A stretch of DNA of 64,000 nt from a virus (IMGVR_UViG_3300035150_000015:32001-96000); one strand, 5' to 3'. Numbered from the stretch's first letter, positions 48,925-50,225 are shown. The notes: a model not told the origin generated them from the letters alone. Translations and numbers: made by a program.

Positions 48925-49623
48925 CTAAATGGTGTTCTGTTTCCAGAATACACCGAATCGTTCGTCCCCCCACGCCTCCCAGAGCTCGGCAGGGTCTTTT
49001 ATCCACCCCTTCCCCACGATTTTAGGTACTCTCGGAATCTTAATGATCTTGGTGGTGAAGTAATCCCGATACTCTTCCAAGAACTTCCTGCCACCTTTGG
49101 CCCCCGCGGCATCCCGATCATATAGAATCCACAACTTCCCCAGGAACCGTCTAAACAACCTTGCCAGCTCCCTAGGCACATGAGAAGTCAGAGTGGCCAC
49201 TGTTCCAGGGCACTGTCTCTGAACAGGGAAAAGATCGAAGGCACCCTCTACCACACAAGCTTCTTCTGTTTCCCACATAGCCTCAACCGCTTGAGCCAAA
49301 CCAAAGAATACAGGCTCCTCAGAATAAGGAGTATAGTCCCGATACCCCTTTATGGCAGGAACAGAGCTCCTGAACTGCAACCCCCGAATTCCCCCCGAAG
49401 ATGTAGTCAAAGGGAATACAAACATACTCTGGATAGTGGCCCCCATCGAGCACCACTTCAAGAAGTCTTTGGGATAATTCATAAGAGGGAGGGTGCCCTC
49501 AAAGTACCCCACGCGATAGGAGTCAATCTGAGAATTTGTGGCGCCCCTAGTCCACAAAGCTTCCCGGATCTCATCATCCATAAGACCTTGAGAATGCTCA
49601 ACAAAAGAGTCCAGCCAAGTCAC
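48925..49623 (-). CDS. DnaG-type primase catalytic/TOPRIM domain without a Zn-binding domain
   Basis: FVFPL...G.I.G.Q.R, VVEG.FD, YD.D.AG and KDP.E motifs. Confidence 0.8.
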   Translation of the reverse strand: MTWLDSFVEHSQGLMDDEIREALWTRGATNSQIDSYRVGYFEGTLPLMNYPKDFLKWCSMGATIQSMFVFPLTTSSGGIRGLQFRSSVPAIKGYRDYTPYSEEPVFFGLAQAVEAMWETEEACVVEGAFDLFPVQRQCPGTVATLTSHVPRELARLFRRFLGKLWILYDRDAAGAKGGRKFLEEYRDYFTTKIIKIPRVPKIVGKGWIKDPAELWEAWGDERFGVFWKQNTI

Positions 49624-50225
49624 TCTTCCACCAAAGCTACGGTTTGATCGGCTCTTCGTACAAGCAGACCTAGATGGTCCCCAACCCTGGTACAGTTGCC
49701 GGCCAGAGAGGGCTCAGTAATAAGCACGGATTGATGTTGGGGCAGGTCGGTCACCAAGACTCTCAGTCCTTCAACCTCACTCACATACCCCTTAATTGCC
49801 ATGATCTTATCGATTTCATCGAGGTCCAAGGTAGCCCCACAAATCTTCTTCAGAGCCATAGGAGAGATGACCAGAGAGACAGCAGGCAGACCCCCTCTCT
49901 TGAAGCCTCGGAGAGCCTCAGATATCGACGAATATCGGTTGGACCAGGCATTATCCGAGGAAAGGCCCCACAGATCTGAGAAGAACTTGGAAAACAAAGC
50001 CCCTTCCCGCTCTAAAGGACACTCGGAAAAAGCGTATCTAACCAGCCCTTCCTGAGACCGTTTGGTCTGCACGAAAGAAGACCTCATGTTGCTGACTACC
50101 AAAGGACAGTCCAGCAAGCCGGCCTCTTGCTCACACAATGTGGGGAGACAGAGGCCAACAGAATGAATCTGCTGACGATAGCGCTCAACTGACAAGATTC
50201 GACTGAAAATAGGGGCCCTCATCAT
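49620..50225 (-). CDS. hypothetical protein resembling the A-domain of the major capsid protein
   Basis: C-terminal ~90 aa align by eye with MCP 20162..21040 (see findings). Confidence 0.5.
   Translation of the reverse strand: MMRAPIFSRILSVERYRQQIHSVGLCLPTLCEQEAGLLDCPLVVSNMRSSFVQTKRSQEGLVRYAFSECPLEREGALFSKFFSDLWGLSSDNAWSNRYSSISEALRGFKRGGLPAVSLVISPMALKKICGATLDLDEIDKIMAIKGYVSEVEGLRVLVTDLPQHQSVLITEPSLAGNCTRVGDHLGLLVRRADQTVALVEE

Follow-up and report, generated by a model that had tools for sequence, protein, structure and literature searches.

A predicted compact HK97-fold protein related to the major capsid protein in the replication operon of uncultured huge phages

Locus, gene model and neighbouring genes

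The window analysed here (the whole 64,000-nt stretch of DNA) is a part of a 104-kb IMG/VR contig from a wetland metagenome, with completeness estimated at 22%; public runs carrying its DNA are wetland and marsh DNA runs. Almost all genes of the window are located on the minus strand. As judged from the matches of its major capsid protein (MCP), the phage is a huge phage of the phage G type: the MCP is 83.5% identical to the MCP region of the uncultured 485-kb phage LR745208.1, 48% identical to the major head protein of Tunturiibacter phage Tunturi_5 and 38% identical to gp27 of Bacillus phage G. Two other ORFs were observed in the head module of the window, a 989-aa ORF with Hint/intein and LAGLIDADG signatures and, just downstream of the MCP gene, an 828-aa fusion of LAGLIDADG and DNA methylase (coordinates of all features are given in Table 1).

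Table 1. Features of the locus and of related genomes (positions are counted in the window unless a contig is named)
Feature	Coordinates	Strand	Remarks
Mini-HK97 gene	49620..50225	−	ORF, 201 aa (200 aa if the second ATG is used)
Shine-Dalgarno sequence of mini-HK97	50226..50233	−	GAGGGGGA, directly 5′ of the ATGATG start; sequence reading
u181	50222..50767	−	181 aa; four invariant cysteines C34, C69, C84 and C93 (alignment of 21 orthologues)
Short DnaG-type Toprim primase	48925..49623	−	232 aa; PF13155 Toprim_2, 2.8e-5; phrog_47 DNA primase, 1.2e-12
Weak hairpin and T-run at the primase stop	48935-48918 (window 48716-48935)	−	
Rad50/SbcC-like ATPase, apparently split	50764-51447 and 54883-56358	−	
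Major capsid protein (MCP)	20162..21040	−	292 aa; phrog_2522 major head protein, 8e-51; PF05065; head module
Hint/intein and LAGLIDADG ORF	23021-25990	−	989 aa; head module
LAGLIDADG and DNA-methylase fusion	17527-20013	−	828 aa; head module
MCP-fragment paralog	G002:C1:43215-43595 (L064:449-1357)	+	303-aa ORF; 46% identical to MCP 5-139
MCP-fragment paralog	G005:C1:323257-323535 (L062:491-1144)	−	218-aa ORF; 36% identical to MCP 162-245
MCP-fragment paralog	G005:C1:313303-313452 (L063:438-1115)	−	226-aa ORF with a hydrophobic N-terminus; 48% identical to MCP 51-98

The gene of interest, called mini-HK97 below, lies between u181 and the gene of a short Toprim primase. An initial reading of the sequence alone placed it 29 kb from the MCP gene and described it as coupled to the primase gene; the distance is 28.6 kb, and the coupling is borne out by the overlap of the mini-HK97 TGA stop with the GTG start of the primase gene (GTGA, 4 nt). 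On the other side, the first ATG of mini-HK97 overlaps the TGA stop of u181, also by 4 nt.

In public gene calls and in the ESM Atlas mini-HK97 is represented by a 155-aa protein that starts at M47, with the N-terminal 46 residues absent. We consider the long form (201 aa) to have the correct start because residues 1-46 are conserved in the family (R15 at 97%, P28 at 96%, P41 at 94%) and are confidently folded in the AF2 model. The Shine-Dalgarno sequence GAGGGGGA ahead of ATGATG supports this start over the database call as well.

The u181 protein had no match in Pfam, PHROG, NCBIfam or PADLOC. Its AF2 model (pLDDT 80) has a long N-terminal helix and a low-confidence C-terminal tail, and no fold match to the predicted structure was found (Foldseek E > 3, VIA Z ≤ 5). 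No match to a CHC2-type zinc-ribbon signature was found in u181, its four invariant cysteines notwithstanding. The primase covers just the Toprim part of DnaG (positions 237-353 of TIGR01391 dnaG), having neither the zinc-binding N-domain nor the helicase-binding C-domain; the primases of phage G and Tunturi_5 are equally short. Stand-alone primase zinc ribbons encoded beside DnaG-type primases have been described in jumbo phages (Iyer et al., PMC7824862). The u181 gene is always located upstream of the primase region, and its product may be a stand-alone metal-binding partner of the primase, a candidate analogue of the primase zinc ribbon; the link between the two comes solely from Tunturi_5, where the u181 homologue gp21 directly abuts the primase gp22.

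Scans for sigma-70 promoters and terminators in the 44-60 kb part of the window gave results no better than those for shuffled sequences. The weak hairpin with a T-run at the primase stop is followed by a gap of ~209 nt, the sole sizeable one in the gene array, and then by the metallopeptidase and clamp-loader genes; together the hairpin and the gap may mark an operon boundary.

Protein family, predicted fold and relation to the capsid protein

The mini-HK97 ORF did not match any model in Pfam, PHROG, NCBIfam or PADLOC, and neither tblastn with the ORF nor blastn with the region produced a match among 50,697 phage records. Single-protein scans of viral contigs and a scan of metagenome contigs with a close alignment (A4) found no relatives, a word-indexed homologue search returned just nine proteins, and the ESM Atlas had no informative neighbours for mini-HK97 or u181. 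An exhaustive HMMER search of 1.84 billion cluster representatives identified at least 182 clusters (50% identity) at E ≤ 1e-3; among the 150 of these clusters that were listed, most homologues are of ~200 aa and aligned end to end. The 99-sequence family alignment (A1) and alignment A3 are without any conserved stretch of 7-10 residues, and the A1 profile retrieved nothing from PDB sequences at E ≤ 10. In one contig (L029:7792-8416) the mini-HK97 gene is split over two overlapping frames while in a near-identical contig (L040:7793-8416) it is intact; the split is either a frameshift or an assembly error.

For structure prediction we ran AF2 on the family-only 99-sequence alignment with templates off, so that no MCP sequences informed the model. 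The model had pLDDT of 96.8 and pTM of 0.92. In a Foldseek search of the PDB the top matches were all HK97-type capsids and encapsulins (best value 9.8e-6). VIA-align superimposed the model on M. xanthus EncA with Z 11.8 and, for residues 1-201 against residues 128-381 of HK97 gp5, with Z 11.0 (~150 residues at 3.5 Å); in a scan of 48,161 PDB representative chains the top 50 were exclusively of the HK97 fold (Z 7.2-10.2). Among viral models in BFVD the best match was gp27 of phage G (E 7e-10, TM 0.62), ahead of all other capsid proteins; gp27 is an orthologue of the window's own MCP. The check by AlphaFold and Foldseek proposed along with the sequence-only reading thus returned an HK97 fold.

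The topology of the HK97 superfamily (spine helix, P-domain sheet and A-domain) is present in the model. DSSP assigned strands within residues 12-65 and a 21-residue spine helix at 71-91; these are followed by the A-domain (residues 101-169, two helices, 101-111 and 135-145, and a sheet), a P-domain hairpin (176-189) and the final strand. The N-arm is absent, with the alignment beginning at gp5 residue 128 or gp27 residue 26, and ~50 residues of loops are missing in comparison with the HK97 fold; short hairpins 30-34/42-45 and 51-54/61-65 are the sole candidates for the E-loop in the predicted model. As modelled, mini-HK97 is a complete, compact HK97 fold.

The protein had been described earlier as a truncated, exapted A-domain. 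The segment aligned by eye is indeed the A-domain; the protein as a whole is not an A-domain alone, given that residues 1-98 add strands, the spine helix and P-domain elements. An A-domain-only fragment was rejected, as the spine helix and the P-domain are present and the model spans gp5 128-381. The missing N-terminal (zinc) domain of the primase was rejected as the identity of mini-HK97 since the fold search returned capsid folds alone.

The by-eye alignment with the MCP (ORF residues ~99-178 and MCP residues ~166-245, where the peptides quoted for it are indeed located) is not above chance on its own: BLASTP of mini-HK97 against the window MCP gave E = 32, with 24% identity over 74 residues. 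Its register, in turn, was reproduced by BLASTP and by profiles. The hhalign comparison of A1 with the 15-sequence MCP alignment (A2) aligned ORF 99-178 to MCP 165-247 with E 3.7e-5, a significant profile match given that reversed or unrelated control alignments had P of 0.4-0.7. An expanded 123-sequence family profile matched the MCP with E 1.2e-5 and reached gp27 of phage G directly (E 0.009). The hhalign probability of these two MCP matches was 71-81%. The ‘EP..G’ anchor of the by-eye alignment also withstood scrutiny: P172 and G176 (89% and 100% conserved in the family) are aligned to P241 and G245 of the MCP, nearly invariant and invariant, respectively. When the 99 family members were compared singly with 38,880 PHROGs, the three families matched most often or best were all annotated as ‘major head protein’, with five members matching such PHROGs, weakly (E 0.007-0.03). 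Overall identity of mini-HK97 to the MCP is <20%, the PF05065 and phrog_2522 models do not match it, and homology is visible profile to profile only.

Could the likeness to capsid proteins be a chance or convergent arrangement of α/β elements in a protein unrelated to the MCP? The pairwise BLASTP result, the absence of a Pfam or PHROG family and an hhalign probability of no more than 81% might be read this way. Still, all of the top 50 matches among the PDB representatives have the HK97 fold and span residues 1-201, the viral protein that matches best is orthologous to the phage's own MCP, and the profile alignment falls, well apart from the controls, into the structurally equivalent A-domain with the invariant P and G matching. 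We regard a chance likeness as very improbable.

Conservation in the replication operon and evolutionary rate

Via the clamp-loader gene we gathered 35 related loci; the viral contigs that carry them reach 536 kb. The order of genes in the replication module is conserved throughout (~30 contigs): RecA, Rad50-N, Mre11, PD-(D/E)XK nuclease, a 97-aa coiled coil, sliding clamp, Rad50-C, u181, mini-HK97, Toprim primase, PF18894 metallopeptidase, clamp loader, NusG-FEN and a sigma-region-4 protein. Among 29 loci covering the slot before the primase gene, the A1 profile found a mini-HK97 family member in 27 and the expanded profile in all 29. Thus mini-HK97 is located between u181 and the primase gene in 29/29 huge-phage contigs covering the slot, as the synteny check suggested earlier has confirmed, and in each of the 29 it is outside the head module with its scaffold, protease and portal genes. 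LR745208.1 is one of the 29; its 180-aa positional orthologue has diverged strongly (hhalign 95%, E 2.7e-8).

Phage G has no member of the mini-HK97 family and no such gene arrangement; nor is mini-HK97 found anywhere in the 309-kb genome of Tunturi_5. Tunturi_5 gp18 and phage G gp418 were tried as hidden homologues and rejected (hhalign P 0.56-0.79). On the simplest interpretation, the u181 and primase genes were paired first, and a gene derived from the MCP was later inserted between them in the uncultured clade; alternatively, mini-HK97 was lost in Tunturi_5.

The Rad50/SbcC-like ATPase of the same module appears to be split: its N-half (AAA_23) and C-half (C-terminal part of SMC_N) are parted by the Mre11, PD-(D/E)XK, coiled-coil and clamp genes. 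This order is kept in relatives.

For a pair of close relatives (L008 and L009) the dN/dS ratio of mini-HK97 was 0.080/0.743, about 0.11 and similar to that of u181; by this measure the gene is under purifying selection. In the nearer group of genomes, identity to the window copy was 29-38% for mini-HK97, 25-41% for the sliding clamp, 34-46% for Rad50-N and 45-57% for the clamp loader. In the four genomes of this group that were tested, identity was 32-36% for mini-HK97, 45-56% for the clamp loader and 89-91% for the MCP; a fifth genome, more distant, still had 86% identity in the MCP with just 33% in the clamp loader. The MCP is thus unusually conserved (86-91%) across genomes with replication proteins at 33-57% identity. 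Hundreds of MCP clusters at 87-95% identity were also observed in public data.

The fold, the profile homology to the MCP of the lineage and the synteny support the description of mini-HK97 as a divergent MCP paralog inside the replication operon. With a probability of roughly 90%, in our estimate, mini-HK97 is a compact, complete HK97-fold protein that descends from a phage-G-type MCP, has shed the N-arm along with about one third of its length, is unlinked from the head module and has become a fixed core gene of the replication/recombination operon, kept by purifying selection between u181 and the primase gene.

Such a protein might still be morphogenetic, as a minor capsid, vertex or portal-proximal subunit or as an assembly chaperone or regulator docking on MCP capsomers, its place in the replication operon being incidental. 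To our knowledge, the complete HK97 fold has been characterized only in shell formers, i.e. capsids of tailed phages and herpesviruses, gene transfer agents, satellites and encapsulins. Moreover, structural genes can be dispersed in huge phages, and the T4 gp24 vertex protein (PDB 1YUE, among the structural matches with Z 7.8) is a precedent of an MCP paralog kept in the same phage genome for a special position in the capsid. The gp24 protein is MCP-sized, is encoded beside gp23 and is a component of the virion; mini-HK97, in contrast, is a third shorter than the MCP and is encoded far from it, amid replication genes. A partner in the MCP lattice is expected to share the MCP constraint. Since mini-HK97 does not, it appears to be released from capsid constraints, which speaks against functions that would require it to co-assemble with the MCP. 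In addition, mini-HK97 is missing from phage G and Tunturi_5, whose MCP is of the same type, the slot is fixed in 29/29 contigs at ~29 kb from the head genes, and the N-arm that would make lattice contacts is missing. A morphogenetic role is therefore unlikely.

The sequence-only reading proposed a part in counter-defence or in competition between phages: a capsid mimic made early would soak up or block host capsid sensors or poison the assembly of co-infecting phages. The protein has the capsid fold, its gene is one of those that evolve faster in the replication module and, if operon logic holds, it is made with early or middle genes (expression before capsid genes is suggested by the operon position). 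Related genomes also hold further, younger MCP-fragment paralogs. We found three of them in complete related huge phages of 435 and 536 kb (Table 1); none belongs to the mini-HK97 family, and MCP pieces seem to have been duplicated and kept repeatedly in this phage lineage. Yet a protein with <20% identity to the MCP would probably not deceive a sensor that recognizes the MCP surface; the low dN/dS and strictly conserved synteny resemble those of a housekeeping core gene, not of an accessory arms-race gene; the rate is no outlier, with the clamp and Rad50-N evolving as fast; and no defence-related model (PADLOC) matched. We consider a decoy function quite unlikely, slightly more so than a morphogenetic one.

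Relation to known HK97-fold proteins and possible function

In comparison with phage-G-type MCPs (PF05065/phrog_2522; gp27, PDB 6WKK; Tunturi_5), mini-HK97 has the same predicted fold over its whole length, shares A-domain profile homology with the common invariant P...G and has gp27 as its best viral structural match. It differs in size (201 versus 292 aa), in the absence of the N-arm, in shorter loops, in identity of <20%, in its location outside the head module and in an evolutionary rate about as high as that of replication proteins.

Family 1 encapsulins (M. xanthus EncA, D. quercicolus, T. maritima) gave Z-scores of 10.2-11.8; they share with mini-HK97 the compact HK97 fold without phage-type elaborations and a small partner gene directly upstream. 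Mini-HK97, unlike them, is viral, lacks the N-terminal helix and the Linocin_M18 signature, and has the primase gene as a neighbour and no recognizable cargo enzyme. The N-terminal helix of encapsulins forms the pocket for the cargo peptide.

The highest structural Z-scores being those of encapsulins, mini-HK97 might form its own closed shell or lattice in the infected cell, either an encapsulin-like nanocompartment with u181 as cargo or a coat on replicating DNA. In operons of Family 1 encapsulins the shell gene directly follows the cargo gene (PMC8346489), as mini-HK97 follows u181, whose product has a low-confidence C-terminal tail. On the other hand, no known targeting motif was identified in u181, which is present without mini-HK97 in Tunturi_5, beside the primase; the mini-HK97 model aligns from encapsulin residue ~26, so that the N-terminal helix is lacking; and no Linocin_M18 or other encapsulin family model matched. 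A compartment of this kind is improbable, in our view even more so than a decoy.

Family 4 ‘A-domain encapsulins’ (DUF1884, PF08967; PDB 2PK8) are HK97 remnants of ~100 aa encoded downstream of enzymes, with which they are thought to form complexes; they consist of the A-domain only and are found in hyperthermophilic archaea and two Bacteroidetes genera (PMC8346489). Similarly, mini-HK97 is a shortened HK97-derived protein in a tight operon with enzymes; unlike Family 4 proteins it is 200 aa long, keeps the spine helix and the P-domain, has no PF08967 match and is encoded by a phage. By analogy, the A-domain encapsulins may be regarded as its nearest conceptual precedent. Mini-HK97 belongs to the HK97-fold superfamily by structure and differs in sequence models and genomic context from the capsid, Family 1 and Family 4 families. 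In the limited body of literature searched, no capsid-fold gene was described in a phage replication operon. We conclude that mini-HK97 represents a new, unannotated and widely conserved family of compact HK97-fold proteins with a non-capsid genomic role.

Proteins with the HK97 fold are above all formers of self-assembling rings and lattices. The functional reading that we prefer, tentatively and at somewhat less than even odds, is that mini-HK97 is a putative self-assembling scaffold of the split primase or the replisome. No longer building the virion shell, mini-HK97 would exploit the tendency of the fold to self-assemble, would form rings or small oligomers and would in this way give the replisome a structural hub. 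In the most likely arrangement, mini-HK97 would hold together the metal-binding module u181 and the catalytic Toprim subunits of the split primase, possibly matching the primase parts to a ring helicase. With the gene translationally coupled to both of its neighbours, u181, mini-HK97 and the primase would be made in a fixed ratio. The fuller scenario, in which a duplicated and miniaturized MCP took on a self-assembling role in the replication machinery, outside the virion, whether as the ring hub of a primase made of three pieces or as a capsid-derived lattice or compartment enclosing replicating DNA, is possible, though rather doubtful.

A component of the replication complex, the third function proposed in the sequence-only reading, is favoured by the strict placement between u181 and the primase gene, and also by a rate like that of replication proteins rather than that of the MCP. 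The clamp gene is located between the Rad50 halves and the operon order is not strictly functional, so that adjacency argues for ‘replication/recombination’ more than for ‘primase’. Several observations count against the scaffold of a split primase: phage G and Tunturi_5 cope without mini-HK97 despite equally short primases, u181 has no family or fold match as a primase zinc ribbon, and the family charge is near neutral (median pI 6.6), which would argue against simple DNA binding and makes mini-HK97 not an obvious DNA binder.

The abundant clade of environmental phages with genomes of 300-540 kb has, as a conserved core gene of its replication operon, a gene for a miniaturized, complete HK97 fold, which has diverged to 30-40% identity, as against nearly 90% kept by the true capsid protein. 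As a minimal HK97 scaffold, the 200-residue protein should interest structural biologists as well as engineers of nanocompartments. If the role in the replisome is true, mini-HK97 would be a clear case in which a virus exapted its own capsid protein, would present a new way of organizing a split primase and would be the first HK97-fold protein to serve genome replication instead of encapsidation.
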